Shown here: in pieces, positions 1,378 through 43,682 of the stretch
Layout of the letters: each line of letters begins with the position of its first letter
Numbering within the stretch: the stretch's first letter is position 1
Assembly: GCA_937128795.1 (NCBI GenBank)
Contig: CAKZMQ010000022.1
Location: 28,511-92,510 of the forward strand
Direction: 5' to 3'
DNA: 64,000 nt
DNA from: an uncultured Solirubrobacterales bacterium
GTDB taxonomy: Bacteria; Actinomycetota; Thermoleophilia; Solirubrobacterales; JACPNS01
Translations under genes and position numbers: made by a program
The notes under the pieces: generated by a model
The model's input: only the letters and a program-made list of their open reading frames with translations
The model's database searches: none
Told to the model about the DNA's origin: nothing

Positions 1378-2366
1378 CGGGTCTCCTCAAGACTGTCTTC
1401 GTCAGCGTGCTCAACGTGCTCGCCGGTCAAGGTCAGGAATACGTCGTCGAGCGTCGGGCGGTGCACGAAGACTTCGTCGATCTCGATGTCGTGCTCTTCG
1501 AGAAGGTCGATCAGGCGGGCGATCTGCTTCGGACCGTCCGTCAGAGCGGCGGTAATTGTTCGCTCGTCGACGTCGCGTTCGACGACTTCGCAGTTCTTGC
1601 CTTCGATCAGCGACTGCGCGCGTTCGACTGCGCTGGCGTCCGTGAGCTTCAATTCCAGACGCTCGCCGCCGACTTGGTCCTTCAGTTCGTCGGAAGTCCC
1701 GCGGGCGATCACACGCCCGTGGTCGATCACGACGACCTCGTCGGCCAGTTGATCGGCCTCGTCGAGGTATTGAGTCGTGAGCAGTACGGTCGTGCCGCGA
1801 CCGACCAGTTCCTCGATCAGTTCCCACATGCCGAGCCGGCTGCGCGGGTCCAGCCCGGTTGTGGGCTCGTCGAGAAAGAGAATGTCTGGCTCAGCGATCA
1901 TGCTGGCCGCGAGGTCGAGCCGTCGACGCATACCGCCGGAGTACGTACCGGCAGGGCGATCCGCAGCGTCGGCGAGGTCAAAGCGCGCGAGCAGGTCGTT
2001 CGCTCGCGGCTTGACTGCAGCCTTTTCCATCCGTGCAAGTCGGCCGATCATTTCGAGGTTCTCGCGGCCCGTCAGCAGTTCGTCCACCGCCGTGTCCTGG
2101 CCGGTGAGCCCGATTTTCGTGCGGACGTCGTTCGGCTGTTTTGCGAGGTCGAAGCCGGCAACGGAGGCGTGGCCGCCGTCGGGACGCAATAGCGTTGTCA
2201 ACATGCGAACGGTCGTCGTCTTGCCGGCACCGTTGGGGCCGAGCAGCGCGGTGACGGTTCCGGTGTTGACGGTCAGATCGACGCCGTCGACGGCCTTGGT
2301 TTCGCCGAAGTGTTTCGTCAACCCTTCGGCGTGAATCGCAATATCGGGCATATCAATGTCTCTCAA
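1374..2366 (-). CDS. ABC transporter ATP-binding protein (DrrA/daunorubicin-resistance-like)
   Basis: Walker A GPNGAGKTT, ABC signature YSGGMRRRL, Walker B ILFLDEPTTGLD. A C-terminal extension typical of the DrrA subfamily is present. Confidence 0.9.
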   Translation of the reverse strand: MRDIDMPDIAIHAEGLTKHFGETKAVDGVDLTVNTGTVTALLGPNGAGKTTTVRMLTTLLRPDGGHASVAGFDLAKQPNDVRTKIGLTGQDTAVDELLTGRENLEMIGRLARMEKAAVKPRANDLLARFDLADAADRPAGTYSGGMRRRLDLAASMIAEPDILFLDEPTTGLDPRSRLGMWELIEELVGRGTTVLLTTQYLDEADQLADEVVVIDHGRVIARGTSDELKDQVGGERLELKLTDASAVERAQSLIEGKNCEVVERDVDERTITAALTDGPKQIARLIDLLEEHDIEIDEVFVHRPTLDDVFLTLTGEHVEHADEDSLEETR

Positions 2367-2454
2367 TTTTTGATGTGGTTTCGCGCGGGGCAGGGGCTAC
2401 TCATTGATCAGACGACGGATACTAGATACGCGAACGGATGTTCGTATTGGGGAG

Positions 2455-3993: not shown

Positions 3994-4071
3994 GCGGCAG
4001 CGCCCACAGATTCCGTCGAGTCGGCGAACCCCATCGATGGACGGTACCGAGCCGGCACCACGGACCAGACG

Positions 4072-5715
4072 TCAGCCGCGCGGAACGAACTCGGGCACGT
4101 CGATGTCGTTGAGCTCCATCGATCCACCGCCAGAGCCACCTCGACGAACGCGCGGTTCGCGATCCACCCGCGTTGCCTCGATCAGGGCCGAACCGCGCGC
4201 GTTACCGCCGCGGGCACCTTCTGATTCGATGCGCCCATGGCGCGGGCGATGGTCGTTGTAACGGGTTGCGATGACCGTCACCCAGACCTGATCGGTCAGG
4301 TTCGGATCGACCATTGCCCCGAAGATGATGTTGGCCTCCGGATGGGCAGCTTCCTGAACGATCTGCGCCGCCTCGTTGACCTCCCAGAGTGAGAGGTCGG
4401 GGCCACCGGTGATTGACAGCAGGATCGAACGCGCGCCCTCGATGCTCGTCTCGAGCAACGGCGAGCTGACGGCCTGATTGGCGGCGTCGGTCGAGCGTGT
4501 GTCGGTGCCACCGGCACCCATACCGATACCAAGCAGAGCTTGCCCCGCGTCGGACATGATCGTGCGCACGTCAGCGAAGTCGATGTTGATCAGCCCCGCG
4601 AGCGTGACGAGATCGCTGATTCCCTGCACGCCCTGGCGCAGAACGTCATCGGCCACGCCGAAGGCTTCGACCATTGAAGTGTTTTTGTCGAGGATTGCCA
4701 GCAGCCGGTCGTTAGGCACGACGATCAGCGTGTCGACCTCTTCCGCAAGTGATTCCACACCGAGCGTGGCGGCGCCCTTGCGGCGTGTTCCCTCGAAACC
4801 GAACGGTGTGGTGACGATGCCGACCGTCAATGCGTCGACCTCGCGTGCGATGCGCGCAACTATTGGCGCAGCGCCGGTACCAGTACCGCCACCCGCGCCG
4901 GCTGTGATGAAGATCATGTCGCTGCCCTTGAGCACGCGCTTGATCGCGTCGTAGTCGGCGATCGCTGCGCGAGCGCCCTGCTCCGGGTCCGCTCCTGCGC
5001 CGAGGCCACGCGTGATGTCGCCGCCGATGTGCAGCTTGACGTCGGCACTGCTGCCCTGCAACGACTGCATGTCGGTGTTGATCGCTACGAACTCGACGCC
5101 GGTCACTCCGGCTTCGATCATGCGATCGACGGCGTTGACTCCTGCACCGCCGACACCGACGACGCGAAGCGCCGGCGAGACGACCTGCGACGAACTCGAT
5201 TTGTACGGCGCTGCGTTTGGGTCGGGAAGTTCGCGCCCGTAGCGGGGCGCAGAGTCCTCGTCGGCGGTGTCGAGAATGTCCGACGGTACGTGCATGTCGA
5301 AGACCTTTTTCAGACGCTCTTTGGCGGGAACATCGCTGGCCATCGTGTTGGCCTCGCGCTGAGTCTCGCCGGCCGAGGATTCAGAAACGGCGAAAGCCGC
5401 CTGATCGGCGGCTGGCATCTGATCGTCTGGTGCTGGTTCGGCGCGCTCCTGCTCGGCTGCTTCTTGCTGCTGGGGAGGGGCCTGTCCAGCTGCGGTCCGC
5501 GGCTCCGAAGTCGGCTGCGCCGGGGGCGACGGGTCAGCCGCCGCAGCTTTGTCGTTGGCGGCGGACTCTTCGGCAGTCTCGGATGCGGCCTCTGGCCCGT
5601 CCGTGCGGCGGAAGAGCGAGGCGAGTGGACCCTCGCGCATGCTGGCGCGCTTGTTCACGGCCGGCTTCTTGGCAGCATCACCGGAAGCGTTGTCGGGCCC
5701 GTTATCTGTTGCCAT
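4072..5715 (-). CDS. ftsZ: cell division protein FtsZ with ~190-aa low-complexity N-terminal extension
   Basis: Motifs: [15 protein letters not shown], tubulin signature [13 protein letters not shown]7 loop NIDFADV, C-terminal peptide [10 protein letters not shown]. The ATG at 5715 is preceded by AAGGAGG (5725-5731) with 9-nt spacing. It overlaps the parA stop by 14 nt. An alternative internal ATG at 5343 has GAGG upstream. Confidence 0.85.
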
Positions 5716-6490
5716 GCGCGATGACCTCCTTGGCCAAGTCTCTGTAGGACTGGGCTGCCATGCCGTCGGGGTCGTACTTGAGGACGGACATTCCCTTCAC
5801 GGGAGCCTCCGCGAAGCGAATCGTCTTCTTGATGCGTGATGCAAACACTCGGTCCCCAAAGTTCTCTTCCAACAACTCGATTGCTTCCTTGGCGTGAAGC
5901 GTGCGTGAATCAACCAACGTCGGCAAAATGCCTTCGATGTCGACATCCGGGTTGAGGTTCTCGCGGATCATCGCCAAGGTGTTCTGCAACTGGATGAGCC
6001 CCCTCATTGAGAGGTACTCACACTGTACGGGAACAATAACTTTGTCAGCGGCGGTGAGAGCGTTGATTGTCAGGAGTCCGAGCGATGGCGGCGTGTCAAT
6101 GCAGATGAAGTCGTACTGATCGCGGATCTCATCGAGCGCCTTGTCGAGCGCGCGCTCGCGACCGATCTGGGTGGAAAGCGCCATTTCGGCGCCGGCAAGG
6201 TCGATCGAGGCGACGGCGACGTCCACCTCGCGCTTGACGATGATCTCGCTGATCGGCACTTTGTGGACGAGCACGTCATAGATCGACGTCTCGACCGTGT
6301 CCGGGTCAACGCCCTGTGACATCGTCAGGTTGCCCTGCGGGTCCATGTCGATGCAGAGCACCTTGTGGCCCTCTTCGACGAACGCGGCAGACAGGTTGAG
6401 CGTGGTCGTGGTCTTGGCGACGCCGCCCTTTTGATTGGCGAAGGCGATGACCTTGGCCTTCTTCTTGCTGCTCTTGTTGTTGTCAGTCAT
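5702..6490 (-). CDS. ParA/Soj-family ATPase (orphan, no parB nearby)
   Basis: Deviant Walker [13 protein letters not shown], followed by [10 protein letters not shown] and [10 protein letters not shown]. The start is set at the ATG at 6490 ([17 protein letters not shown]) with GGAG 9 nt upstream. The longer ORF reaching 6820 has no family-like sequence. Confidence 0.85.
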
Positions 6491-6690
6491 TTCGGGCGGC
6501 TCCAGATGAGTCGGTGCGGGGCCGCGCGGCGAGCGACGCCGAACGGCGGAAGTTTGCTTTTGATCAGCCCCGGGAGAGGGCCTACTGCATGGCGTATTCG
6601 TAGAAGGGTGGGGTATTCCTGCCCAGGGGTGATGTTGGATTTTCAGGCTGGATGCGGGATTGCGGCAACTTGCCTTCGTTTTGATGCTTC

Positions 6691-6918
6691 GGGTGGGTTG
6701 ACTTTCGTTTTGGCAGGCGAGAAGGAAGGCGATTGGGCGTGGGGCGCGGTCCTTTGCGGGGCGGGTCGCATTCCAATGGGGGACGTTGGTCCAGGACTCC
6801 CCCTGAGGGGGACTCCTCAATCAAAAACCTGCATCGGAAGGCCATCCACCCAAACAGCCCCGCCGCCCGCGCCGATCCTGCTTCCTTTTCGCCTGCCAGT
6901 ACGAAAGTCAATCCGCCC
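6691..6918. repeat. 38-bp imperfect inverted repeat (arms 6691-6728 and 6881-6918) enclosing 152 bp
   Basis: Arm gggtgggttgactttcgttttggcaggcgagaaggaag versus the reverse complement of cttccttttcgcctgccagtacgaaagtcaatccgccc gives 33/38 Watson-Crick pairs. Four of the five differences are G-U compatible on the + strand. Confidence 0.8.
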
Positions 6919-6958
6919 CTGGCTCCAACCCGAGCCAACACGACTAGCCTCCCGTGCC

Positions 6959-7927
6959 ATGCCAAGCAAGGCGTTCGGCACACCTCCCAAGGACCTCTTC
7001 AAGCACCGGCTGCTGTTCGTCACCGGCAAGGGTGGCGTCGGCAAGACGACCGTTGCAGCGGCACTGGGTCTCGCCGCCGCCAACGCCGGCTTGAAGACGA
7101 TGGTCTGCGAGCTCGATGCACGAGAGCGACTGCACAGCCTTTTCAACGTCCCGACGCGTGGTTTCGAAGAGGTGGAACTCGTCCCAGATCTTCACGCAAT
7201 CGCGATCGACCCACAACACGCGATCGAGGAGTACCTGCTGCTGCAGATCAAGGTGCGACCGGTCTACGACATGTTGTTCAAGAACCGGATCTTCGACTAC
7301 TTCGCCGCCGCAACTCCAGGCCTCGCCGAGCTGGTGACGATCGGCAAGGTCTGGGAGCTCGCGCAGCCGGATCGGCTGACCAAAAAGGCGCAGCGCTACG
7401 ACCTCGTGATCGTCGACGCGCCCGCCACCGGACATGCGCTGGCGATGCTTGAAGCGCCGGAGACGTTCCGCAAGATCGCCAGGATGGGGCCGATCCATCG
7501 CCAGGCCGGCTACATCCAGCAGTTCTTGCACGACCCGGAGCAGACGGCGGTGATCGCGGTTGCCACCGCCGAGGAGATGCCGGTTAACGAAACCGTCGAC
7601 CTGCGAAACGAGTTGATCGAGCGTGTCGGGCTCGATGTGTCGCTCAGCATTCTCAACGCACTCGAACCTGAATTCTTCAGCTCGGCCGAAGTGAAGAAAC
7701 TCCGCGCCGTTGACGCGATCGCCCCGATCGAGGCTGCGATTCTCCAGTCCGAGCGCGCAGCGCGCCAGCGAGAGCAACTCGATCGATTGGGCAACGACCT
7801 TGACCGACCGATCATCACGCTGCCGTTTCTCTATGAAAAGGCGATCGGCCGGGCCGAGCTCTCCGAACTGGCCGAGGCGCTGGCCGAGGATCTTGCAGAA
7901 CCGCTCGACGAGGTGCGCCGCTCGTGA
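6959..7927 (+). CDS. ArsA/Get3-like ATPase, first of a pair (Rv3679-like)
   Basis: P-loop GKGGVGKTT, then DLVIVDAPATGHAL. The start is set at the ATG at 6959 (MPSKAFG); upstream ORF sequence overlaps the inverted-repeat region. Confidence 0.8.
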   Translation: MPSKAFGTPPKDLFKHRLLFVTGKGGVGKTTVAAALGLAAANAGLKTMVCELDARERLHSLFNVPTRGFEEVELVPDLHAIAIDPQHAIEEYLLLQIKVRPVYDMLFKNRIFDYFAAATPGLAELVTIGKVWELAQPDRLTKKAQRYDLVIVDAPATGHALAMLEAPETFRKIARMGPIHRQAGYIQQFLHDPEQTAVIAVATAEEMPVNETVDLRNELIERVGLDVSLSILNALEPEFFSSAEVKKLRAVDAIAPIEAAILQSERAARQREQLDRLGNDLDRPIITLPFLYEKAIGRAELSELAEALAEDLAEPLDEVRRS

Positions 7928-33950: not shown

Positions 33951-34027
<77 letters not shown>

Positions 34028-34057
34028 AAAACTCCCCGGAAATCTGGGGAGTTTTTT
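34028..34057. terminator. intrinsic terminator (bidirectional) after the tRNA and after the rep-like gene
   Basis: Perfect 10-bp stem aaaactcccc/ggggagtttt, loop ggaaatct, then a T-run. On the other strand it is followed by ttttgtat. Confidence 0.7.
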
Positions 34058-34883
34058 ATTGCGTATTTTCGCGACGTCGACAATCTAACGAGCGATCTAA
34101 CAATCGGTCGTCTCCCCTGTCGGCCGGAAGCGGGTCAAAGACCCACCACGGGATTTCAGTCCCGGAGTAGATGCGGCAGTACTTACCCGCTCCCAAGAGC
34201 GGCTCCCACTCGCATTCACCCGCACCCTCCTGAGCAGGGCCACCAAAGATGGAACCCTCGGCCGGATCGAATGCTGGGGCCGCCGGAAAGTCTCTTGAAA
34301 AGCCGTAGGCGCGTTGCCCTTCCTCAAGGTCGGCCAGCCTGTGCGAGATGTACTTCGAGCAATACCGCGCATGTTCTGGCTTCGCACGTTCGATGAATTG
34401 TTGCGACCCGAAACCGCTCTCTTCAACCAGCTTGCGCCAAAGCTCCAGGTCATCACGAAACCACTTCATGAAGAAGATGCCGTGGTAATGCAACGTGCCG
34501 TTTTCTTGACGCTGAAGCACCCAGCCGTATCCGGCGAGGAGCTTGCGATAGCGCAGCTTTGAGATCAGACGGCGCAAGCATTCGTGGGCCTCCGCCGCCG
34601 TTGGCGCGCGATCCTCCGGGAAGGTCAGCGTTACGAACGCCGGAAACATTCCCTTCGGCGGCTTCTGAATCGCTACTCGAAATCGACCCGCCAACTCCCA
34701 CTGCTTGCGCATCGCGCAGCCCGGACACCTGCGCCATCGCTTGCACGCGACCTCGATCCGTTCGCCGTGATTGGCGCACTCCAACATCAGCGGCGAACTA
34801 CAGACCCATTTCGATGAACTTTTCGCACTTGTTCGTAATAGCTCGCCCTTCGGGCTCGCTTTCAAGGAAACAGTCCTAAACAT
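34056..34883 (-). CDS. rolling-circle (HUH-type) replication initiator-like protein
   Basis: N-terminal zinc-ribbon-like CANHGERIEVACKRWRRCPGCAMRK, an HUH-like motif GTLHYHGIFF and a Tyr motif RYCSKYISH. The assignment rests on motifs only. Confidence 0.5.
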   Translation of the reverse strand: MFRTVSLKASPKGELLRTSAKSSSKWVCSSPLMLECANHGERIEVACKRWRRCPGCAMRKQWELAGRFRVAIQKPPKGMFPAFVTLTFPEDRAPTAAEAHECLRRLISKLRYRKLLAGYGWVLQRQENGTLHYHGIFFMKWFRDDLELWRKLVEESGFGSQQFIERAKPEHARYCSKYISHRLADLEEGQRAYGFSRDFPAAPAFDPAEGSIFGGPAQEGAGECEWEPLLGAGKYCRIYSGTEIPWWVFDPLPADRGDDRLLDRSLDCRRRENTQ

Positions 34884-35250
34884 CGCTTTCGCTTGACCCT
34901 CCGATGTCCGTAGCCGGTGTGGTCCCGGCCGCTGGGACGGGCTGAGGCCCTTCCCAACGCCCTACAACCGAAACGGCCAGACCGAGCTGAAAATGGACGT
35001 AGAGGAGCGTCGAGACTTCCGACACCTTCTGAGAGTCATTGGCGAGCTTCTTGATCTCATCCGACAGGTGCCCTCTGAGTCCGTTCGCGATTCGATCCCA
35101 GTGCCCCCGAGTTTCAGGCCCGAATTCCGGAAACACGCGGATTAGCGAATCCAGATCTTGAAAACGTGCGCGAACCCCGTCGCGTTGCAAATCCCCTAGC
35201 GCCTTGTGTGCGGCCCAGAGATGTACCTGGGCTTGGTCAAGTCCGTCCAT
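34876..35250 (-). CDS. hypothetical protein (124 aa) of the integrative element
   Basis: The ORF overlaps the rep-like start by 8 nt (coupled). No motif is recognised. Confidence 0.45.
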   Translation of the reverse strand: MDGLDQAQVHLWAAHKALGDLQRDGVRARFQDLDSLIRVFPEFGPETRGHWDRIANGLRGHLSDEIKKLANDSQKVSEVSTLLYVHFQLGLAVSVVGRWEGPQPVPAAGTTPATDIGGSSESDV

Positions 35251-35321
35251 GACTAGGACTGTGCCTGAGGTTCGCGAGCCGTGCAGGGTTTTCCACTAAG
35301 TGCCGGAAGATCCGCTTTGCC

Positions 35322-36053
35322 GTGGATCTCACAGAGAGTTACAAGAAAGTGTTTCCGGAAGATGTCCTTGAGCGCTACACGTTCGAGGAGACGCGCTCGG
35401 CTGCTGCCGTTCTCGCGCATACGAACGCGGAGGAGTTCGATCACCTCGTGACGGCATTGAGAGAGTTCGAGCTGATTCCCCGCGATGTCATCGAACCCGG
35501 CAAGAACGAATCGAAGATCGCCGCTCGACTCAATGAATCGTTCCGAAGCCGAGGTTGGCGAGAAGGCCAGTACAACCTCAAGATTTCCTCCCTGCTTCGC
35601 CTAATGCCATACAAACCTGCGGGCGAAAAGAAGGCCATCGAGATTGAATCTGAAGTTGAATCAGCGGGCTACAAGGTGGACAACATCCGCTCCACAGTTG
35701 CGCTTGACGTTGAGTGGAACGCGAAGGACGGGAACCTAGATCGGGACGTAGCTGCGTATCGCTCCCTGTACGACGCGGGATTCATTTCGGTAGGTGTGAT
35801 CGTGACCCGCACGACAGACGATCTCCGAGCGTTAGGCGCGCTCTACGACCGTCCCAAGTTTCTCGGGACCACGACCACTACAAACCTTCCGAAGCTCAAG
35901 CAACGAATGACCCGGGGCGATGGCGGCGGTTGTCCGATGCTGGCAATCGCGATCTCAGCGAAGTGCTTCGACCCAGACGGCGACGGCCACGACGAGCCGG
36001 AAGCGCTCGCCGCCGACAGGGATCAGGTTCAGGCGCTAACCGACGGCGACTAG
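35322..36053 (+). CDS. putative type II restriction endonuclease (BamHI/BglII-like PD-(D/E)XK fold)
   Basis: The core YKVDNIRSTVALDVEWNAKDGNLDRDVAAYRSLYDAGFISVGVIVTR resembles the (V/I)E(V/I)(E/Q)(F/W)GN...RD...(I/V)GV(I/V)I core of BamHI/BglII-type enzymes. It is convergent with, and overlaps, an MT-A70 methyltransferase. GTG start. Confidence 0.45.
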   Translation: MDLTESYKKVFPEDVLERYTFEETRSAAAVLAHTNAEEFDHLVTALREFELIPRDVIEPGKNESKIAARLNESFRSRGWREGQYNLKISSLLRLMPYKPAGEKKAIEIESEVESAGYKVDNIRSTVALDVEWNAKDGNLDRDVAAYRSLYDAGFISVGVIVTRTTDDLRALGALYDRPKFLGTTTTTNLPKLKQRMTRGDGGGCPMLAIAISAKCFDPDGDGHDEPEALAADRDQVQALTDGD

Positions 36054-36689
36054 CGGAGGCCGACCGTCAGGCACACCGTACGCAGCGTTCGAGAAGCGCT
36101 CCGGTTCATATGCGCCCAGCTCGTTGCCCCATTGAGTCCAGCCCGGACGCTCGTTGCGAGCGAAAAGTTCTAGCCACGGACCCGGCGAGCACGACTCCAC
36201 TACGTCGTACATCTGATCGGGCTTACGCGAGTGCTCGCGCTTGCGCTCCGAGACGAGATTGACTTGCGTCCGACCGGGGTCGAGTGTGCGGTTCTGCTTT
36301 CCGCGAATGCCAAACAACACCATCTCGGTCACATTGCGGAAGTAGAAGCCGACGCCGCGACCGTCTGGGCCGCCGTCCTTCCTCGTCTTGTACCAAACCA
36401 AGTTTGTCTTGTACTCAAAGCCCCAGGCTTCCATTACGGCAAGTCCGTCGGCGAGCAGCGCGTTAGGCACCCAGAGGTATAGGTGGGACTTGTCAGCGAC
36501 GACGCTTGACACCGGCAAATCGCAAATCTCCGCCGTCGTCATCGTCTCGTATCGGGCGAGCCTTTGATGCTCAGGGGCCATTTTCCCGGTGCGATTCTGG
36601 AAACGCCACGGGGGATCTGCGAGCACCGTCCGAAACGGGTCGTGCTTCTTCGTAAGTGCCTTCATTGACTGATGCGTCAAGTTCTCCAT
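36036..36689 (-). CDS. MT-A70-family DNA (N6-adenine/N4-cytosine) methyltransferase
   Basis: Catalytic DPPW motif (VLADPPWRFQNR), then LYLWVPNALL and a C-terminal HSRKPD. The start is set at the ATG at 36689 (MENLTHQ). Confidence 0.8.
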   Translation of the reverse strand: MENLTHQSMKALTKKHDPFRTVLADPPWRFQNRTGKMAPEHQRLARYETMTTAEICDLPVSSVVADKSHLYLWVPNALLADGLAVMEAWGFEYKTNLVWYKTRKDGGPDGRGVGFYFRNVTEMVLFGIRGKQNRTLDPGRTQVNLVSERKREHSRKPDQMYDVVESCSPGPWLELFARNERPGWTQWGNELGAYEPERFSNAAYGVPDGRPPLVAVG

Positions 36690-36807
36690 GATTACCCCTC
36701 TGTTCAACGGCCGCGTCCGCTTGCCTCTAGCCGAGATGGCAAACGTAGTGGTTCCAGCGGCCGGATCCGTATGTACGAACATACGTTCGTGTCACCGCCG
36801 GACGGAA

Positions 36808-38016
36808 TTAAACCCGCACCATCGAGCCGAGTTCCACTCCAAACACATGGGTGTAGATGTCGGTGGTCACCGCAAACGTCGAATGCCCCATCGTCGCCTG
36901 AATGGCCTTAAGAGACGTTTCGCCGCGATTCTTGAGCATCAGCACCGAGCAGAATGAGTGGCGCAGGTCATGGATTCTCAGCCGGTCAGGTAGGTCGGCC
37001 TTCTCCACGGCAGCACGAAAGATGCGGCTTCGGTAGTTGTCTGGGCAAACGAGCTTTCCGCTTTCAGAAGTGAAGATGAAATCCTTGCTCCCAGTCTTCT
37101 CGGCCGAGGTTTTTAGCTCGGCCAGCAGGTCGATCAATTCCCGTCGGACAGGGACGCGCCGAAAGGACATTTCTGATTTCGGATCGCCGGGTTCGCCACC
37201 GCGAGAAGAGGATCGCGAAACGTGAATCTCGGCGCGGTCAAAGTCGATGTCCCTCCATTGAAGTGCTCGCGCTTCCCCAAGCCTCAGTCCCGAAAAGCAC
37301 AGCACAGCAGTCAGCCCCTTCCAGCGCGGATCCACGACATCTACGAGCAGCTCAAGCTCTCGCTGATCAATGAACAGCGGCCGACGCATCTTGAGCTTTG
37401 GCAGCTCGGCACCCTTCACCGGATTGATCGCTATGACCTCGTCGGCAATCGCGAGATCGAGGATCGCGTGTAGAACTGCGATGTGATTGCGGATTGTCTT
37501 GGCCGACAGCGCGCGCGGTTTGCGGAGCGCTCCAAGGCCATCAACTGCCGGATCGAACTCGCGCTTGACCGACCGCACCGGCATCGACGCGATTCCCTTT
37601 TTCTTCGCCGCAATGTACTTACGGACGTCCTCCGGCTCTACATCAATGACCCGACAGGAACCGTCGTCGAACGATGGGAGCAGGTGGCCGTAGATGATCG
37701 TCAGGTAGTCCTGCGTCGTCGTTTTCCTAATGGCTCCCGTGTCTTCATTCTGCCTGAGAAATCGATCGGCGTAGTAACGCATCGATCGCTCGCTCGCGAT
37801 CTCAGGCTGTCCCTCGGTCTTGGCGTCCTGGACTTCTGTGAGAAGCTGGTTCAGGAGTTCCTGAGCGTGCCGCGCAGTCGGACCTGCGGCCTTCCAGCGT
37901 TGAACATTCGCGGCGTCCCAATACACCGCGTAGTAGGTGGCTGAACCGTCCGCCTTGGTTCGCATCTGAATCGAGCCAGAGCCGCGCGGGCGGCGAGTGC
38001 GTGATTTCTTAGACAT
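36808..38016 (-). CDS. int: tyrosine-type site-specific integrase
   Basis: Catalytic region GLRLGEARALQWRDID...HDLRHSF...GHSTFAVTTDIYTHV (the R..HxxR..Y pattern). The start at the ATG at 38016 (MSKKSRTRRPRGSGSI) overlaps the xis stop by 8 nt. Confidence 0.9.
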   Translation of the reverse strand: MSKKSRTRRPRGSGSIQMRTKADGSATYYAVYWDAANVQRWKAAGPTARHAQELLNQLLTEVQDAKTEGQPEIASERSMRYYADRFLRQNEDTGAIRKTTTQDYLTIIYGHLLPSFDDGSCRVIDVEPEDVRKYIAAKKKGIASMPVRSVKREFDPAVDGLGALRKPRALSAKTIRNHIAVLHAILDLAIADEVIAINPVKGAELPKLKMRRPLFIDQRELELLVDVVDPRWKGLTAVLCFSGLRLGEARALQWRDIDFDRAEIHVSRSSSRGGEPGDPKSEMSFRRVPVRRELIDLLAELKTSAEKTGSKDFIFTSESGKLVCPDNYRSRIFRAAVEKADLPDRLRIHDLRHSFCSVLMLKNRGETSLKAIQATMGHSTFAVTTDIYTHVFGVELGSMVRV

Positions 38017-38239
38017 CGTCTCTCCAATCCATTTTCTTATTTGGGCGAGCGTTACCGCTGCGCCGTGAGGTGTGTTTTGTGCCGCCGGTTGCCATCCACG
38101 ACTCAATATCTGAGCGGTTGAATCGGGTCAGGCTGCCAACGAGGAAGTGCGGGATACCGTCCTCAGCATGCGGGGACGTCAGGCGATCAATCGTTGAGCG
38201 TGAGACACGCAAAAGGTCAGCTACTTCACTGACGGTCAT
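38009..38239 (-). CDS. xis: excisionase-family helix-turn-helix protein
   Basis: MTVSEVADLLRVSRSTIDRL...RFNRSDIESW is a MerR-like excisionase HTH. It lies directly upstream of int. A start at 38263 is an alternative. Confidence 0.7.
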   Translation of the reverse strand: MTVSEVADLLRVSRSTIDRLTSPHAEDGIPHFLVGSLTRFNRSDIESWMATGGTKHTSRRSGNARPNKKMDWRDDV

Positions 38240-38472
38240 GACGGTTTGAATTGCCTGTTCCACTTAAGGAACATAGGTCGTCTGGAGCGAGGAACCGGAC
38301 GAGAATGCAAATTTTCCGCAAGTCTCGTCTTCCGCGAATCTAGGGCAGTTTTTCCACGGCAAAACAGGCCCGCGAGATCTAACGAAATCTCACTATGCCT
38401 GACGAATCGTGACTGTTTGTGCGTCAAATACCCCATACGTATGCGGTATCGCGACACTACGCCTAGAGCTGA

Positions 38473-38523
38473 GTCGGGCTCATAACCCGAAGGTCGCAGG
38501 TTCGAATCCTGCCCCCGCTATAC
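38473..38523. repeat. att core copy 2 (attR of element 1 and attL of the older remnant)
   Basis: Identical 51-nt copy of the tRNA 3' part, lacking the tRNA 5' half. Confidence 0.85.
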
Positions 38524-38526
38524 GTG

Positions 38527-38558
38527 GAAACGCCCTCGCGAGAGGGCGTTTCTTGTTT
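38527..38558. terminator. intrinsic terminator following att copy 2
   Basis: 11-bp stem gaaacgccctc/gagggcgtttc, loop gcga, then ttgtttcc. It may also terminate the convergent ADH gene. Confidence 0.6.
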
Positions 38559-38646
38559 CCACGTGTTGTCGTGATTTACACGCATCAGCCATTGTTGCCG
38601 TCAAACCGATGCCATTCGGGCGCAACGGAGCTACGTGCTCACGCCG

Positions 38647-39657
38647 TCATCGCTCCAGCACGACCCGGTAGCGCGGAGTGCCCGAACGGAGGCGCTCGAT
38701 GGCTTCGTTGATCTGATCGAAGCCGAACGTTTCGCAGACAGGCGCGATGTCGTGGCGCGCCGCGAAGTCGAGCATCGTGAGTGCCGTGGTCGGGCTTCCC
38801 GAGGGCGAGCTCGAGACCGACCGATTCGCCATCATCAGCTGTGTGTTGACGATCTCTAGGGGTGCGGGCACCGCTCCGAGTACGTGCATGCGGCCCTGGC
38901 GGCTCACCGTACCGAGATAGGCGTTCCAGTCGAGCGGGGCGTTCACCGTCGACAGCAAGAGGTCGAATGACTCGCTGAGCGCGGCGAGCGCCTCGCTGTC
39001 ACGTGAATCGCGCACATGGTGGGCACCCATGCCCCGGGCGTCGTCGCCCTTCGACTCTGTTGAGGTGAAGACCGTGACCTCGCAACCCCACGCGCGCGCG
39101 AGCTTGACCGCCATGTGTCCCAGTCCTCCCAGGCCGATAACTCCGACGCGGTCAGTCGGCGAGACGCCGTACTGCAAGAACGGGGTGAACACCGTGACTC
39201 CGCCGCACATCAGCGGGCCCGCGGTCCGCAGGTCTACGCCGTCGGGGATCGGGAGCACTGCGGCCGCGTCGGCGCGCACGACGTCCGCGTACCCACCGGG
39301 GCGGCCGATGAACGTGCTCTTCGCATCGGGGCAGAGGTTCTGGTTGCCGCCGACGCACTGGCGGCACGCCCCGCAGTAGGCGGCGTTCCAGCCCAGCCCG
39401 ACCGCGTCGCCCACCGCGACGCTCGTCACGCCCGGTCCAACGGCGCGGATGCGGCCGATGATCTCGTGTCCGGGGGTAATCGGGTACGGCGTGAACCCCC
39501 AGTCGTTATCGATCATGCTGACGTCGCTGTAACAAATTCCGCACGACTCGACGTCGATGTCGACCTCGCCGTGGTCCAGCTGAGGCAGTTCGAACTGGTA
39601 GGGCTGGAGCTGTCCGCCGGGGGCATCTGCTCGGTAGGCGTTGACGGTCACGGGCAT
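38647..39657 (-). CDS. zinc-dependent NAD(P) alcohol dehydrogenase (cinnamyl-alcohol/YahK-like)
   Basis: Catalytic zinc motif CGICYSD...GHEIIGRI, structural zinc CGACRQCVGGNQNLC, Rossmann VIGLGGLGHMAV. Confidence 0.85.
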   Translation of the reverse strand: MPVTVNAYRADAPGGQLQPYQFELPQLDHGEVDIDVESCGICYSDVSMIDNDWGFTPYPITPGHEIIGRIRAVGPGVTSVAVGDAVGLGWNAAYCGACRQCVGGNQNLCPDAKSTFIGRPGGYADVVRADAAAVLPIPDGVDLRTAGPLMCGGVTVFTPFLQYGVSPTDRVGVIGLGGLGHMAVKLARAWGCEVTVFTSTESKGDDARGMGAHHVRDSRDSEALAALSESFDLLLSTVNAPLDWNAYLGTVSRQGRMHVLGAVPAPLEIVNTQLMMANRSVSSSPSGSPTTALTMLDFAARHDIAPVCETFGFDQINEAIERLRSGTPRYRVVLER

Positions 39658-39840
39658 GGCTGTTCCTCCTGAGTGGTTCCTGAGGTCAAGAGCCTGTCAA
39701 GTGGTTCGAGCGGCGTCGTGCACGATCGTCCGAAGTGGTTGCCTGATCCTCCACGATTGCCGTAGTGGCGCCCCAAGAAGGCCTCATTAGGTAGGGGTCA
39801 CGGCGACTCGTGCTGCCTGATCCTGCATACTTACGGTCTC

Positions 39841-40773
39841 ATGTCGGTCCAGTCCATATCCGCACACCCCACCCGCGAGTCGGCGTTGCTGGACCTCGCG
39901 GACCTTGTCGGCGAAAGGCTGGGCGGCGAGGTCGGAGAGCCCCTCCTGAGGCGGCCCTATGACGGACTCCTGCTCCTTTCGCATCGCCAGAGATCCGCTC
40001 GCGTCCCGCAGGTCTACGACCCCGTCGTGTGTTTGGTGGTGCAAGGCGCGAAAGAAGTCGTCGCCGCAGATCGGGTGCACCCGATCACCGCCGGGCAGTT
40101 CCTCGTGGTCACCCACGAAATGCCGGTCGCCTCGCGGATAACCGCAGCCTCCCACGGGGAGCCGTACCTCGCGGTGGTGCTGTCGATCGACACCCAGACC
40201 TTGGTGGAGTTGCAGATGCGGATCGGCGCCACCGGAGCGATGGCGCCGGCGGGCGGTGACGGCTACGCGATGAGCGTCGGTGATGCCGACATCGATCTGG
40301 TCGACGCCTTCACTCGCTGCCTGCGAGCGACCGGCGAGCGCGACGACACCGATGTGTTGCTCCCGCTGGTCTTCCGCGAGATTCACTACCGGCTTCTGAC
40401 GTCGCCCCATGCTGACACGCTCCGGCGTCTCAGCCTTGGAGATACGGCTGCGCAGAGCGTGTCAAAGGCGATTGCACTGATCCGGCGTGATCTCACGGCG
40501 CAGATTCGCATCGGCCTGCTCGCAAAACACGTCGGTCTCAGCACTTCCGCGCTGCACCATCACTTCAAGACCGTGACCGGAACCACGCCGATCCAGTGCC
40601 AGAAGCAGCTCCGACTCCTCGAAGCGCGACGTCGCCTGCAATCGACCGGCCAGTCGGTCTCCGAGGCCTCCTACGCCGTCGGCTACGCGAGCCCCTCGCA
40701 GTTCAGCCGCGAGTACCGTCGTGCATTCGGCTGGCCGCCCTCCCAGGACGTGGGCACCCTCCTCGATAGCTAG
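39841..40773 (+). CDS. AraC-family transcriptional regulator (N-terminal AraC_N/cupin-like domain)
   Basis: C-terminal double HTH: LAKHVGLSTSALHHHFKTVTGTTPIQCQKQLRLLEARRRL...VSEASYAVGYASPSQFSREYRRAFG. Confidence 0.85.
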   Translation: MSVQSISAHPTRESALLDLADLVGERLGGEVGEPLLRRPYDGLLLLSHRQRSARVPQVYDPVVCLVVQGAKEVVAADRVHPITAGQFLVVTHEMPVASRITAASHGEPYLAVVLSIDTQTLVELQMRIGATGAMAPAGGDGYAMSVGDADIDLVDAFTRCLRATGERDDTDVLLPLVFREIHYRLLTSPHADTLRRLSLGDTAAQSVSKAIALIRRDLTAQIRIGLLAKHVGLSTSALHHHFKTVTGTTPIQCQKQLRLLEARRRLQSTGQSVSEASYAVGYASPSQFSREYRRAFGWPPSQDVGTLLDS

Positions 40774-40832
40774 AGCATTCACAGGTGTCGGGGCGTGCGG
40801 CGATCTCATCGCAGACCACTCAGGCCGCCATG

Positions 40833-40870
40833 AACCCGAAGGTCGCAGGTTCGAATCCTGCCCCCGCTAT
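40833..40870. repeat. att core copy 3 (displaced ancestral tRNA 3' end)
   Basis: aacccgaaggtcgcaggttcgaatcctgcccccgctat is identical to tRNA positions 37-74. It is followed by its own hairpin. Confidence 0.8.
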
Positions 40871-40878
40871 TTCGAGAG

Positions 40879-40975: not shown

Positions 40976-41539
40976 CTAGCTGAACGACAGCGAGTTCAAC
41001 ACCTGTTCGCAGCCCGCGTCCAGTGCGGCACGGTTTGCGGGAGACGACTGGCAGTTGACCAGAAACTCGTTCTTGCCTTGGAACAAGAACGTCAATGTCG
41101 TCAGAAGCTCGACGCCGTTTCCGCCCGGGTACTCAACGACGTATTGGTAACCCGGAATTCCGCCAAAGCTCACTTCTATTGAATCGCTTGAGCTGCCATT
41201 TGACTGGCGCGTGAGACGACGGACAATCCTGTCGATCTCTTCCTGATTGGCGTTGAACCCGTCGGGCAGCTCTTTGTCGAGTTCGTACTGCGCAACTGTG
41301 ATCTCATCGTCGGGCTCCTTCAACGTCACGCCCACCGACCGCACCGCGTCGTCCGAGCCGAATACAAAGGCAGGATTCCTCGTCACCTTCCAGCCGTCGG
41401 GATAGTCGAAACTGAACGGATACGTTGGTGTGTCGAACTTGGCCGTAGAGGTTTTATCCCCTCCGCAACCAGAGACCGTCAGGACCACTAGAAGCAGAAC
41501 TGAAACGACGGCGGAGATGTAGAAACGATTTCGGATCAC
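40976..41539 (-). CDS. lipoprotein of unknown function
   Basis: Signal peptide with lipobox LTVSGC. The mature part is about 160 aa and beta-rich. Confidence 0.65.
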   Translation of the reverse strand: MIRNRFYISAVVSVLLLVVLTVSGCGGDKTSTAKFDTPTYPFSFDYPDGWKVTRNPAFVFGSDDAVRSVGVTLKEPDDEITVAQYELDKELPDGFNANQEEIDRIVRRLTRQSNGSSSDSIEVSFGGIPGYQYVVEYPGGNGVELLTTLTFLFQGKNEFLVNCQSSPANRAALDAGCEQVLNSLSFS

Positions 41540-41824
41540 GGGTATCGGGCGGTCTTGATTTATTCAATATCGATTGGCCGACGAACAGACGGCGGCTGAT
41601 TCGGGCCCTGAAGCAATTGAATGCACTGCCGGAGCCCTTACCTATTTCGGTAGATCAAAAACGTTTCCTGCGTGACTGGCACGGCTCCCACCGGCAAGGA
41701 TTGCGCTCGGCGACCTAAAACGACTAGAGCGGCGAAAAACCTTCTTAATGGTAACCCTAATGAGGTATACAAAGATGCCCATTAGTGTGGATTGTCCAGA
41801 ATACGGCTTTCTTCTAGGTTTAAC

Positions 41825-41853
41825 TTGACACCTGAGGGCAGATGCCGATTATA
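41825..41853 (+). promoter_or_regulatory. sigma-70/SigA-type promoter upstream of the collagen-like gene
   Basis: TTGACA (41825-41830), a 17-nt spacer, then ATTATA (41848-41853), in an AT-richer tract 60 nt upstream of the GTG start. Confidence 0.5.
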
Positions 41854-41912
41854 AGTGTGCGCCTGCACGTTCGCGGTCAGGTTGCTCGATCCGTTTTACG
41901 GAGCCTTAGTTC

Positions 41913-43682
41913 GTGCTGATTTCTCGACGAAACGACAACCACGCCGGATGGAACGTCACGGCAATCATGGGAGTAGCGATAACGCTGCTCTCGGCGATCG
42001 CGCTGCTATTTGCGAACGCGCAACCTGCGAAAGCGTGGTACGTGGGTGTCCCGAGCAAGTCTTGTGCCTACTACAGCATGATGATTGGTCGACAGACTCT
42101 CTATCTAAATCGAAATCAGTACCGGCTCAACCGCACGCGCTCTGCCTCGAAACGACGCGCGCTGCAACGCAAACAGAAGCGAATGGAAGATCGTCGGCAC
42201 GAGTTTTTGAAGTCGTACAACTCGAAATGCGCGCCGTCGACCGCTGATGCGCTGCTTACGCAGCTTCGCACGAACCCGTCATCGGCAGCTACCTGGAATG
42301 AGATTTTTGTCGAAGTAGGCGCGCAAGGCGCGATGGGTCCCGCTGGTGCGGCCGGTGCTGACGGCGCAACGGGCGCGACAGGCGCGACTGGTGCAACCGG
42401 CGCTGCTGGAGCTGATGGTGCCGACGGCGCGACAGGTGCAACCGGCGCTGCTGGCGCAGATGGTGCCGACGGTGCGACGGGAGCAACTGGTGCGACGGGC
42501 GCGACCGGGGCAACCGGCGCCGTAGGCGCGCAGGGCGCGATGGGCCCGACTGGTGCGACTGGTGCCGATGGCGCGACTGGGGCAACCGGCGCTGCAGGCG
42601 CAGATGGTTCTGACGGAGCGACGGGTGCAACCGGTGCGACAGGTGCCAATGGAACTGACGGCGCCGATGGGGCGACCGGGGCAACGGGTGCGACCGGCGC
42701 CGTAGGCGCGCAAGGTGCGATGGGTCCGACCGGAGCTGCTGGAGCTGATGGTGCTGACGGAGCGACGGGGGCAACCGGCGCTGCTGGCGCAGATGGTGCC
42801 GATGGTGCGACTGGGGCAACGGGTGCGACCGGCGCCGTAGGCGCGCAGGGTGCGATGGGTCCGACCGGTGCGGCCGGTGCGGCCGGTGCCGACGGTGCGA
42901 CTGGTGCAACGGGCGCCGCGGGCGCAGATGGTGCCGACGGCGCAACTGGGGCGACGGGTGCAACGGGCGCCAATGGAACTGATGGAGCTGATGGCGCGAC
43001 TGGGGCGACTGGGGCAACGGGTGCGACTGGCGCCGTAGGCGCGCAGGGCGCGATGGGCCCGACTGGCGCAGCTGGAGCGGTAGGTGCGACTGGAGCTGTC
43101 GGCGCCGCGGGCGCGATGGGCGCTACAGGCGCGACTGGTGCGACGGGTGCGACGGGTGCTACCGGTGCGACTGGAGCTGTCGGCGCGCAAGGCTCGATGG
43201 GCTCGACCGGTGCGACTGGAGCAACGGGTGCCACCGGACCTCAAGGCCCCGCAGGCTCGCAGGGGCCGGCTGGTGCGACCGGCCCGACAGGTCCGCTCAG
43301 CACGCTTGGCTACTTCGGCAGCGAGACAGAACGGTCTACCTCCAGCGGGTCCCTGACCAACTTGACCGGGGTCTCATTTACGTACACGGTGCCAGTCGGC
43401 GCGAACCGCATCATCGTCAACTGGACGTTCGAATGCCGGACGTACCAACTGTTCGGAAACCCACAAGCGAAAGCACGTATCACCGTCGACGGAAGTGCCG
43501 CCAGCGGCGACTCCGGCGACTACGTGGCTTGCCAAAACTCAGATCCCGGAACCGGAGCACTGACCCGGGCATTCGATGTGACCAGTGGGAGCACTGTGAC
43601 GATTCGCGGTCAGGGAAGCACCTCGGGCGGCACCGCCTACTACGACGACAACTTCATGACGGTCGTGCCGGGTACGCAGTAG
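41913..43682 (+). CDS. secreted collagen-like triple-helix repeat protein with beta-rich C-terminal domain (BclA-like architecture)
   Basis: GTG start with GGAG 9 nt upstream and a signal-like N-terminus (...[11 protein letters not shown]). There are ~325 uninterrupted Gly-X-Y triplets ([18 protein letters not shown]), followed by a 130-aa non-repetitive C-terminal domain. Confidence 0.8.
42316..43296. repeat. Gly-X-Y triplet array with higher-order repeats
   Basis: The landmark g(t/c)(a/c)ggcgcgca(a/g)gg(c/t)(g/t)cgatggg (GA(V)GAQGAMGP) recurs at 42315, 42522, 42702, 42837, 43035 and 43179. The spacings are 207, 180, 135, 198 and 144 bp. Confidence 0.85.

Follow-up and report, generated by a model that had tools for sequence, protein, structure and literature searches.

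A probable 4.5-kb integrative element with a type II restriction-modification system as its only cargo in a Solirubrobacterales-type genome

We analyzed a 64,000-nt stretch of DNA from an uncultured Solirubrobacterales bacterium (contig CAKZMQ010000022.1), hereafter called the window, in which a tRNA-Met gene carries an insertion. We consider it rather probable that the insertion is an intact 4.5-kb integrative element of a Solirubrobacterales type, that a type II restriction-modification (R-M) system is its sole cargo, and that it is dependent on a helper. Its genes are arranged in the order Xis, tyrosine integrase, MT-A70 methyltransferase (M), convergent endonuclease (R), 124-aa orphan and HUH Rep. 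The parts and their layout are all of known kinds.

Boundaries and integration site

Two 100% identical copies of a 51-nt direct repeat were located at 33977-34027 and 38473-38523, spaced 4,496 bp from start to start. The 4,445 bp between the two cores correspond exactly to the interval 34028-38472 that the preliminary description had delimited. The first copy (attL core) starts within the integration target, a tRNA-Met (CAT) gene at 33951-34024 on the forward strand (ARAGORN; Rfam tRNA, 65.5 bits), and supplies the 3' part of this gene from 33977 on. A terminator-like hairpin borne by the element (34028-34057, forward strand; AAAACTCCCC...GGGGAGTTTTTT; inverted repeat I1) takes the place of the native tRNA terminator and overlaps the rep stop codon. 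The second copy (attR core), with a partial tRNA match, is the tRNA gene's own 3' end, now displaced, and is followed by the native tRNA-Met terminator hairpin (38524-38562, forward strand; GTGGAAACGCCCTCGCGAGAGGGCGTTTC...), which was pushed away by the insertion. The hairpin after attR resembles the type found directly 3' of intact tRNA-Met at unoccupied sites on many metagenome contigs. The repeats and hairpins show, at the level of sequence, that integration restored the tRNA gene, now followed by the element-borne terminator, and placed a 51-nt duplicate at the opposite end of the element. In this step, the integrase recombined the tRNA-Met gene of the chromosome with an attP that carried 48 nt from the 3' end of tRNA-Met and 3 additional nt.

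The G+C content was 55-60% within the element versus 62-70% in its flanks. The host is a soil actinobacterium of the Solirubrobacterales type. The exact R protein was present on four contigs, all with the same neighbours; no circular junction, attP junction or second insertion site was found in our searches.

Integration, excision and replication genes

The tyrosine integrase (about 402 aa; 36808-38016, reverse strand, ORF to 38106) matched PF00589 (E 8.4e-23) and PHROG 1 (E 8.8e-58), and its R...HxxR...H...Y residues are readable in the translation (GLRLGE, HDLRHS and GHSTFAVTTDIYTH). The start of the integrase gene overlaps by 8 nt with the 3' end of xis, which encodes an 84-aa protein of the HTH_17 excisionase family (38009-38263, reverse strand; PF12728 and TIGR01764, each with E 1.3e-10). 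A non-coding attP arm of about 210 bp (38264-38472) has the lowest G+C of the element and contains the palindrome ATACCCCATACGTATGCGGTAT at 38428-38449. This arm could hold the Int/Xis arm sites and perhaps also a replication origin. Xis and Int together would excise the element as a circle.

Rep (275 aa; 34056-34883, reverse strand) was assigned to the HUH rolling-circle endonucleases (PF23343, E 6.6e-11). The name of this Pfam family refers to the replication-associated proteins ORF2 and G2P. The protein has an N-terminal Cys/His cluster, motif I (FVTLTF), the HUH motif (H132-Y-H134) and Y174-x3-Y178; these motif residues were invariant across 17 homologues, whose N-termini back the full-length start. 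In the AF2 model, the pLDDT of the core exceeded 85, and the best Foldseek matches were the HUH domains of circovirus, nanovirus and geminivirus Reps. Thus, the HUH motifs, the two catalytic tyrosines and the HUH fold were all present, in agreement with the Rep-like assignment made previously. Rep also matched PHROG 3419, annotated as rolling-circle replication initiation. Its nearest annotated relatives were Microviridae replication initiators (27-29% identity, E 2e-4 to 9e-4), and the similarity is low (29% across roughly half of the protein). No plasmid match was obtained by tblastn at E 1e-3 among the 72,556 plasmids of PLSDB, and no relative was detected among 2.9 million IMG/VR viral contigs.

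The rep start overlaps by 8 nt (ATGTTTAG) with the 124-aa orphan ORF (34876-35250, reverse strand; from the ORF list), to which rep is predicted to be translationally coupled through this overlap. The codon-position GC of the orphan (0.71/0.44/0.62) is compatible with coding. It matched itself alone among 5.8 billion proteins and 1.84 billion cluster representatives, and had no Pfam, PHROG, NCBIfam or PADLOC match. The two-tyrosine Rep, expressed from this coupled operon, would nick an origin and start rolling-circle copying of the excised circle. No replication origin was identified, and no non-coding k-mer was common to the elements of the Rep family described below.

ORF analysis and searches with Pfam, NCBIfam, PHROG and PADLOC detected no FtsK/TraB, capsid or C-protein gene in the element, as the preliminary description had stated for all three, and left no further ORF with database or profile support. 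Since transfer and packaging genes are absent, the element would move between cells through a helper or passive routes. The same gene content, in which int and xis are present and transfer genes are missing, also fits an integrative mobilizable element (IME). In that case the HUH protein would not maintain the circle as a plasmid but would act mainly as a relaxase nicking an oriT, and a co-resident conjugative element would export the circle. Transfer genes were absent from all relatives too. Guedon et al. 2017 (PMC5704250) report 118 streptococcal IMEs with relaxases related to rolling-circle (RCR) initiators, and 35 of them lack a coupling protein and so have a minimal layout like the one seen here. 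Like streptococcal IMEs (Coluzzi 2017; Guedon 2017), the element has an integrase, an excisionase (optional in that group), one HUH/Rep-like protein and a small cargo. However, the streptococcal elements belong to another phylum, and their proteins are of the Rep_trans, PF01719, PHA00330 and PF02407 types rather than PF23343. The nearest annotated Rep relatives are replication initiators, no PLSDB plasmid carries a match at E 1e-3, and neither a helper element nor an oriT was identified for the window element. In addition, published mobilization by RCR-type relaxases used TcpA-type coupling proteins of Firmicutes (PMC5704250). We regard mobilization as the main role of Rep as unlikely, and favour the reading of an intact integrative element whose Rep would copy the excised circle.

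The restriction-modification pair

R (243 aa; 35322-36053, forward strand) matched PF09195 (Endonuc-BglII, E 3.1e-23) and contains an invariant acidic core, D120...D129-V-E131...K135 (alignment A1). Its AF2 model (pLDDT 84.6) was most similar in Foldseek to BstYI (E 4.4e-8), then to BamHI and OkrAI, which bears out the BamHI/BglII-like nuclease proposed for this protein. R thus shares the REase fold, PF09195 and the acidic catalytic core D-x8-D-x-E with the BglII/BstYI/BamHI systems, whereas its sequence identity to the solved BstYI, BamHI and OkrAI enzymes is only 12-13%. The sequence profile of the R family did not find the solved enzymes in the PDB. R has at least 1,866 homologues, some of which are named 'BglII/BstYI family type II restriction endonuclease' by NCBI, and no PADLOC REase model recognises them. 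R probably cuts a GATC-centred palindrome, since BstYI, BamHI and OkrAI do so, and its specificity is a guess by analogy. RGATCY sites are found at 35308 and 35324; no recognition site could be inferred from the window, in which GATC-type hexamers are not avoided.

M (about 217 aa; 36036-36689, reverse strand, ORF to 36782) matched the MT-A70 family (PF05063, E 2.7e-31), PADLOC MTase_II (E 3.8e-87) and PHROG 359 (E 1.2e-60), as well as MT-A70/METTL3 structures in the PDB (down to E 4.5e-20). It contains the motif LADPPW within a complete MT-A70 domain and is of the beta-class permuted N6-adenine methyltransferase type. Translation of M probably starts at the ATG at 36689, which follows the ribosome-binding site AGAGGGG. 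The remaining gene assignments of the preliminary description were likewise upheld by profiles, motifs and folds.

M is located downstream of xis-int, with a gap of 119 bp. R is separated from orf124-rep by a divergent intergenic region of 71 bp (35251-35321), which is presumed to hold back-to-back promoters; R would be transcribed from this shared region. The 3' ends of R and M converge and overlap by 18 bp (36036-36053), as described previously. Convergent transcription may set the R:M ratio, as suggested there, but the significance implied for the overlap itself was not supported by the comparison with homologues. The overlap arises because R carries an extra acidic C-terminal tail of about 25 aa, which is not conserved and is modelled with low confidence; most homologues are about 218 aa long. 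In the one other convergent pair examined (L011/L012), R and M are separated by a gap of about 215 bp. On this comparison, the overlap is a by-product of the R tail and not a conserved control device or a family feature. The BglII and BamHI systems are regulated by a C protein, which is absent from the window element.

The pairing of an MT-A70 enzyme with a BglII-like nuclease had been regarded as unusual, but it was found in six of the seven unrelated contexts examined and is mentioned in the literature. It recurs in five further contexts (L008, L009/L010, L011/L012, L022 and L023), in tandem and convergent arrangements and in every gene order. L022 is an independent 5,003-bp element in a tRNA-Lys gene, with int, xis, a small HTH gene, M and R but no Rep.

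The m6A methylation by M is expected to protect the site cut by R. If the pair behaves as type II R-M systems are known to do, it would restrict incoming DNA and penalise loss of the element by post-segregational killing. R-M or TA systems have been proposed as addiction modules of streptococcal IMEs (PMC5704250).

A Rep-defined family of small elements

The Int-Rep core recurs in about ten related elements, 4.0-6.4 kb in size, whose insertion sites are tRNA or tmRNA genes. In the data searched here, the Rep family was seen in Solirubrobacterales assemblies only. Att repeats of 26-54 nt delimit the relatives at a tRNA-Thr site (6,361 bp), a tRNA-Pro site (4,745 bp) and tRNA-Val sites (4,023, 5,031 and 6,260 bp), and others adjoin a tmRNA gene. 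Each consists of an integrase, small ORFs, Rep and a distinct cargo of its own, including a GHKL-ATPase pair, a TPR-HNH protein, DUF4352, an ECF sigma factor and DUF1883. No FtsK/TraB or other transfer gene was found in any relative. The window element had been called stripped-down; its small size and lack of transfer genes stand, but given these relatives it is better read as natively small.

A reduced origin would be expected if the insertion descended from a larger AICE or prophage that lost all but int, xis and rep by deletion, acquired an R-M cassette and can no longer move. A gene of about 96-110 aa upstream of Rep, kept in seven relatives, is absent from the window element, whose orphan ORF occupies the position of another gene family; the replication module may therefore be incomplete. 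The R-M genes lie between int and rep, whereas the cargo of the relatives lies between rep and the tRNA gene. In a related element at the same tRNA-Met site of a related genome (L006/L019), an integrase fragment is fused to a rep fragment, indicating that such elements decay and that the middle part can be lost. However, the att repeats of the window element are perfect across 51 nt, all six genes are full length with intact catalytic residues, and the family as a whole is of similar small size, keeps intact repeats and lacks transfer and capsid genes; no larger ancestor is in evidence. We consider a remnant quite improbable. It is very improbable that the element derives from, or is a satellite of, an ssDNA phage, with a Microviridae- or Inoviridae-type Rep making ssDNA circles for packaging by a helper virus: Microviridae initiators are the sole annotated Rep relatives among the phage and plasmid collections, and PF23343 and PHROG 3419 point the same way, but the similarity is partial, IMG/VR holds no relative, and no family member has a capsid-like gene, the large cargo proteins with a Pfam match being the GHKL ATPase and TPR-HNH proteins and the other large ones having no informative match.

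The favoured reading, an intact element with R-M cargo, has close precedents. The published unit of Xylella fastidiosa Temecula1 also consists of an integrase with a type II R-M system as sole cargo, in a tRNA gene with a perfect long direct repeat (Furuta, Abe & Kobayashi 2010, NAR, PMC2853133), and L022 is a further such unit, with an R-M system of the same family as that of the window element. Unlike the Xylella unit, the window element adds an excisionase and a rolling-circle Rep operon, and its integrase is at the tRNA-distal end. With pSAM2-type elements (PMC2440964) it shares an actinobacterial host, a tyrosine integrase and Xis at a tRNA gene and, putatively, replication of the excised form by its own initiator. 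The pSAM2 initiator is of the rolling-circle type and is said to resemble RCR phage Reps (PMC2440964). In contrast to these elements, the FtsK/TraB-type transfer protein and the Spd, Kor, Pra and Nudix genes are absent, and 4.5 kb compares with 10.9-17.3 kb for pSAM2, pMEA300 and SLP1 (PMC2440964). Because Rep matched no PLSDB plasmid, it is not established as a relative of RepSA.

Thus, tRNA-integrated units of integrase and R-M genes, and the pairing of a BglII-family R with an MT-A70 M, were already known. The new part is the Rep-defined family of 4.0-6.4 kb Int-Rep elements with varied small cargo and no transfer gene; no earlier description of such a family of very small elements seems to exist.

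Integration site and gene content of the element

The tRNA-Met(CAT) gene was located at 33951-34024 by ARAGORN and Rfam, and Rfam returned nothing besides this tRNA and its partial copy. A 51-nt direct repeat, which extends from the anticodon stem to 3 nt beyond the tRNA end, is present in two identical copies, at 33977-34027 and 38473-38523. The interval proposed in the preliminary description, 34028-38472, is precisely the DNA between both copies. The first copy is directly followed by a hairpin and T-run (34028-57), an insert-borne replacement terminator, and the second by GTGGAAACGCCCTCGCGAGAGGGCGTTTC. We scanned JGI metagenomes with the 3' end of tRNA-Met and obtained 88 stretches, 80 of which were taken as loci (L025-L104). 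An intact tRNA-Met directly followed by the same type of hairpin, GGAAxCCxCCTCTCGCCAGGxGG, was observed in many of the 80 loci, indicating that the order in the window is tRNA, insert, and displaced tRNA 3' end with the native terminator. The G+C content of the insert is 55-60%, compared with 62-70% outside.

In approximately 32 of the 80 JGI loci, the tRNA 5' half is missing from the tRNA 3' sequence. These are distal att copies of integrated elements, and thus tRNA-Met is a frequent integration site (hotspot) in this bacterial group. Only distantly related integrases were found near several of them, and relatives of the endonuclease (R), the methyltransferase (M), the HUH protein (Rep), or the 124-aa ORF (orf124) of the window element were absent from the JGI tRNA-Met loci. 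The scan yielded neither a same-species empty site nor an attP junction. The attP junction of an excised circle would read ...CTACGCCTAGAGCTGA, the 51-nt core, and AAAACTCCCCGG..., and the empty attB left after excision would consist of the core and GTGGAAACGCCCTC.

The tRNA-Met 3' end recurs a third time, in degenerate form, at 40822-40872, 2.3 kb past attR (the second repeat copy); over 51 nt, this copy shares 78% identity with the core, including an unbroken run of 38 identical nucleotides (AACCCGAAGG...CCGCTAT). Between attR and this copy (38524-40821), there are only two genes and no integrase: a zinc alcohol dehydrogenase is encoded on the minus strand (38647-39657) and an AraC-family regulator on the plus strand (39841-40773). 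This arrangement suggests tandem accretion at the tRNA, and the stretch may be an att-flanked, integrase-less islet mobilizable in cis by the integrase of the neighboring element. In the window, a region with G+C of 0.71-0.74 and GC skew of +0.18 to +0.24 (42250-43250) is preceded by one with G+C of 0.52-0.57 (41250-42250).

From the attR side, the minus strand of the element encodes an excisionase (Xis, 38263-38009; HTH_17/TIGR01764, E 1.3e-10), whose 3' end overlaps the integrase start by 8 nt, and the integrase (38016-36808; PF00589 E 8.4e-23, PHROG 1 E 8.8e-58), in whose translation R, HxxR, H, and Y are readable. After a gap of 119 bp, the M gene runs on the same strand from its likely start, the ATG at 36689 behind AGAGGGG, to the stop at 36036. 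R is encoded on the plus strand (35322-36053) and matched PF09195 (Endonuc-BglII) with an E-value of 3.1e-23 and 82.7 bits against a cut-off of 26. As described preliminarily, the two genes share 18 bp (36036-36053) at their convergent 3' ends. Divergent from R at a distance of 71 bp, orf124 (35250-34876, minus strand) is coupled to rep through an 8-nt overlap, ATGTTTAG. The rep gene (34883-34056, minus strand) matched PF23343 (ORF2/G2P-like; E 6.6e-11, 42.8 bits against a cut-off of 27.8).

No further gene supported by databases or profiles was detected in 34028-38472 when ORFs of at least 50 aa were searched against Pfam, NCBIfam, PHROG, and PADLOC; a 63-aa ORF overlapping the R start had no family match. 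FtsK/TraB-like and capsid genes are, as reported preliminarily, absent from the ORFs of this interval, and so is a small HTH controller (C) gene, the 71-bp region upstream of R being non-coding. orf124 matched only itself in word-indexed and exhaustive HMMER searches and nothing in family libraries; when it was aligned with the genes that occupy its position in relatives, hhalign gave a probability of 0.3%.

The restriction-modification pair

The AlphaFold (AF2) model of R had a pLDDT of 84.6, and Foldseek matched it with BstYI (E 4.4e-8), BamHI (E 2.5e-3), and OkrAI (E 8.4e-3), all at a probability of 1.0. In sequence searches of the PDB, neither phmmer nor a 19-sequence profile recovered BglII, BstYI, or BamHI; thus, the kinship of R to these enzymes is visible only through the Pfam model and structure comparison. 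Foldseek and Pfam both assign R the alpha/beta PD-(D/E)XK nuclease fold of BglII/BstYI/BamHI, as the preliminary description had anticipated from its core. D120, D129, E131, and K135 are invariant among 19 R homologues sharing 54-67% identity, and the whole block ALDVEWNAKDGNLDRD is invariant or nearly so in the same sequences. Judged by motif spacing, these four residues are the putative equivalents of the BstYI/BglII active-site residues.

R has at least 1,866 homologues, most of which are from Solirubrobacterales or Thermoleophilia, and some of them carry the NCBI name 'BglII/BstYI family type II restriction endonuclease'. Most are approximately 218 aa long. The window R carries an additional acidic tail of approximately 25 aa, modeled with low confidence, and it is this tail that makes the R gene overlap M by 18 bp; tails unrelated to it occur in a few other homologues. 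M contains a full-length MT-A70 domain (positions 1-172 of 172, E 2.7e-31) with the motif LADPPW. It matched PADLOC MTase_II with an E-value of 3.8e-87 and MT-A70/METTL3 catalytic domains in the PDB with E-values down to 4.5e-20.

The pairing of an MT-A70 enzyme with a BglII-like nuclease had been regarded as an uncommon combination. We found R next to an MT-A70 methyltransferase gene in six of seven contexts, which shows a recurrent pair in a large, already noted family. The order is M, a 72-aa antisense gene, and R in the contigs L008 and L009/L010; R and M are convergent with a gap of approximately 215 bp in L011/L012; M precedes R within another integrative element (L022); R precedes M in tandem in L023; and R has no MT-A70 neighbor in L024. 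Gene order is thus free in this family. The 72-aa protein in L008/L009 had a weak HARE-HTH match, and an 80-aa MarR-like HTH protein is encoded beside the pair in L022. Transcriptional interference across the R/M overlap may delay R relative to M when the window element enters a new host, and is not a conserved solution.

The L022 element (2179-7256 in GCA_040960395.1) is an independent 5,003-bp insertion in tRNA-Lys, bounded by a 48-nt att repeat with one mismatch. It encodes an integrase, an HTH_17 Xis, a 51-aa ORF, the MarR-like protein, an MT-A70 M, and a BglII-family R with 66% identity to the window R, and has no Rep.

BstYI, BamHI, and OkrAI, the solved enzymes of this fold matched by the model of R, recognize GATC-centered hexamers. 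By palindromic hexamer statistics, GATC-type sites were not under-represented in the 64-kb window, a length at which this measure is uninformative. Two RGATCY sites, AGATCC (35308-35313) and GGATCT (35324-35329), lie 16 bp apart on either side of the R start codon. If the system recognizes RGATCY, these sites could, speculatively, provide methylation-sensitive control of R. GGATCT at the R start codon is also present in L008/L009, and not in L011, L022, L023, or L024; we therefore keep this switch as a lead only. In the whole 64-kb window, AGTACT occurs once against approximately seven occurrences expected from a maximal-order Markov model, and the CTAG-containing palindromes CCTAGG and TCTAGA are absent. 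Such scarcity may stem from a further R-M system or from the host avoiding CTAG in general.

Rep and a family of small Int-Rep elements

A Cys/His cluster (C28, C36, H39, C47, C53, and C56) is invariant among 17 Rep homologues with 42-58% identity. Conservation of the N-terminus speaks for the full 275-aa reading of Rep over the gene call of 243 aa in the database. Also invariant in the 17 sequences are motif I (F83-x-T85-x-T87-F88), the HUH motif (H132-Y-H134), and Y174-x3-Y178. The core of the AF2 model (residues 30-200) had pLDDT values of 81-97, and its top Foldseek matches in the PDB were the HUH domains of circovirus, nanovirus, and geminivirus Rep, Helitron transposase, and TnpA-REP. 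The E-values were modest (2.6e-3 to 2e-2) with probabilities of 0.8-1.0, and the matches were mutually consistent. The HUH/Tyr geometry expected of the Rep-like protein is thus present in both motifs and fold. A tblastn search of 72,556 PLSDB plasmid records and a search of NCBIfam returned no match to Rep. No non-coding k-mer was common to six Rep-family members; the regions 38264-38472 and 35251-35321 are candidates for the Rep origin.

Rep homologues are few (63 protein clusters), and those in reference genomes occur only in MAGs labeled Solirubrobacterales, Solirubrobacteraceae, or simply Actinomycetota. Wherever flanks were available, Rep sits inside an element bounded by a tRNA-derived repeat. 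The att spacing is 6,361 bp at tRNA-Thr (L002) and 4,745 bp at tRNA-Pro (L013), and 4,023 bp (L014), 5,031 bp (L015), and 6,260 bp (L007/L016) at tRNA-Val; the element in L004/L005 adjoins a tmRNA gene, and its spacing was not delimited. Besides an integrase and Rep, the family core comprises a conserved protein of approximately 93-110 aa and another small protein. The integrases fall in different clusters, in step with the different targets. The 93-110-aa protein (MLxLKAKFL...PPS.L.T..D..GE.LNLV) is encoded upstream of Rep in seven members (L002, 7346-7636; L013, 7065-7394; and L014, L015, L016, L018, and L020) and had no Pfam match; from its residue pattern, we suspect an OB-fold ssDNA-binding protein. 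The window element deviates from this plan in that it lacks this gene, its cargo lies between int and rep, and its rep-coupled gene is an orphan with no detectable relative.

The cargo of the relatives lies between Rep and the tRNA and is different each time. It includes a 636-aa GHKL/HATPase_c_3-type ATPase with a 292-aa partner (L002, 8886-11773), a 450-aa TPR-HNH nuclease protein (L015, 8773-10125), a DUF4352 protein, a 400-aa uncharacterized protein with an ECF sigma factor, DUF1883, and further uncharacterized proteins. The GHKL-ATPase pair and the TPR-HNH protein matched no PADLOC model, though they look defense-like. Transfer or capsid genes were not found in any family member. We considered whether the large cargo ORFs are hidden capsids and rejected this: the 636-aa and 450-aa proteins are the GHKL ATPase and TPR-HNH protein, the rest had no informative match, and none matched a structural PHROG or Pfam family. 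The 6,373-bp contig L003 was likewise considered as a circular form of a relative: both of its termini lie within the att core and overlap by 12 nt, and its length equals the L002 att spacing plus 12. This reading was rejected because a de Bruijn assembler breaks contigs in this way at a 47-nt repeat.

Classification and possible mode of mobility

We favor, with moderate confidence, a compact and intact integrative element whose sole cargo is the R-M pair. Of this, the integration event at tRNA-Met and the identities of the proteins are established. Int and Xis would also mediate excision, Rep would copy the excised circle by a rolling-circle mechanism, and the type II R-M pair would restrict incoming DNA for the host and penalize loss of the element. 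R-M and TA systems are presumed addiction modules of integrative mobilizable elements (IMEs) (PMC5704250).

[quoted passage not shown] The window element shares Int, Xis, and the tRNA target with att sites. It lacks the translocase: none of the ORFs of at least 50 aa in 34028-38472 has an FtsK/AAA domain. AICE initiators are of the RepSA, RepAM, or Prim-Pol type; the window element has an HUH rolling-circle Rep, which matched no PLSDB plasmid and no NCBIfam family. Lacking a Tra protein, it is not an AICE. Nor does it appear to be a stripped-down one, as had been suggested. Its relatives, at 4.0-6.4 kb, are likewise devoid of transfer and capsid genes, which argues for a natively small element over the stump of a larger AICE.

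With its own Int and Xis and without conjugation machinery, the element has the makeup of an IME. Guedon et al. reviewed IMEs with an RCR-initiator-related protein as the sole mobilization protein (PMC5704250), and by analogy the HUH Rep could act as a relaxase for a helper element. No oriT, clt, or helper was recognized for the window element. We regard an IME that transfers by this route as rather unlikely.

That the element is an immobile remnant appears improbable, and a decayed element is found at the same site. In a Solirubrobacterales MAG (GCA_047605325.1; L006/L019), the same tRNA-Met, with the same GAF-kinase and PQQ/cytochrome c neighbors, carries a related element in which an integrase fragment (83% nucleotide identity to the window) is fused in frame to a rep fragment (72%), at L006 7990-8471. 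The fusion corresponds to a deletion equal to window 36953-34580, at a GAAT...TGCGCC microhomology. DUF1883 and 91-aa genes lie between rep and the tRNA, and a 322-aa uncharacterized ORF lies on the other side. The lost material possibly included an R-M pair, and this deletion indicates that the middle part of such elements is not always retained.

An ssDNA-phage satellite is scarcely credible: among phage records, Rep matched only Microviridae replication initiators, weakly (27-29% identity, E 2e-4 to 9e-4), and no Rep relative was found in IMG/VR. A Microviridae or Inoviridae prophage is excluded by the absence of structural genes (no PHROG/Pfam match and no unassigned coding space).

Precedents are known for several features of the intact compact element favored here, namely the R-M family, the pairing of its two enzymes, integrase units that carry nothing but R-M, and minimal elements with Int and an RCR Rep. 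In Xylella, Furuta et al. described a tRNA-integrated unit that consists of an integrase homologue and type II R and M alone (PMC2853133). The less ordinary point, which goes beyond the preliminary description, is the Solirubrobacterales Int-Rep family with its phage-like zinc-cluster Rep and swappable cargo. We tentatively propose that the window element belongs to a so far undescribed family of 'Int-Rep' hitcher elements of 4.0-6.4 kb, whose targets are tmRNA and five or more tRNA species (Met, Thr, Pro, Val-GAC, and Val-CAC) and which we encountered only in Solirubrobacterales assemblies. In this proposal, all would have an HUH Rep with a zinc cluster and two tyrosines, related to the initiators of ssDNA phages, never carry transfer or packaging functions, and each hold one small interchangeable cargo, several of which are defense-like (R-M, the GHKL-ATPase pair, TPR-HNH, and DUF1883). 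Among the self-replicating integrative elements that carry immunity genes in Actinomycetota, they might then be the smallest.

If active, the window element would combine excision, self-replication, and retention enforced by R-M in one near-minimal, self-contained unit, in a poorly studied soil lineage (Thermoleophilia/Solirubrobacterales). It would provide further evidence for R-M systems travelling as the sole cargo of tiny integrative elements. The family is of greater interest than the single element, as it comprises approximately ten elements of similar size with swapped integrases, targets, and cargo. It is a tractable system for asking how 'hitcher' elements with no apparent helper move, and bears on whether integrative elements in Actinomycetota have recruited ssDNA-phage-type Reps.
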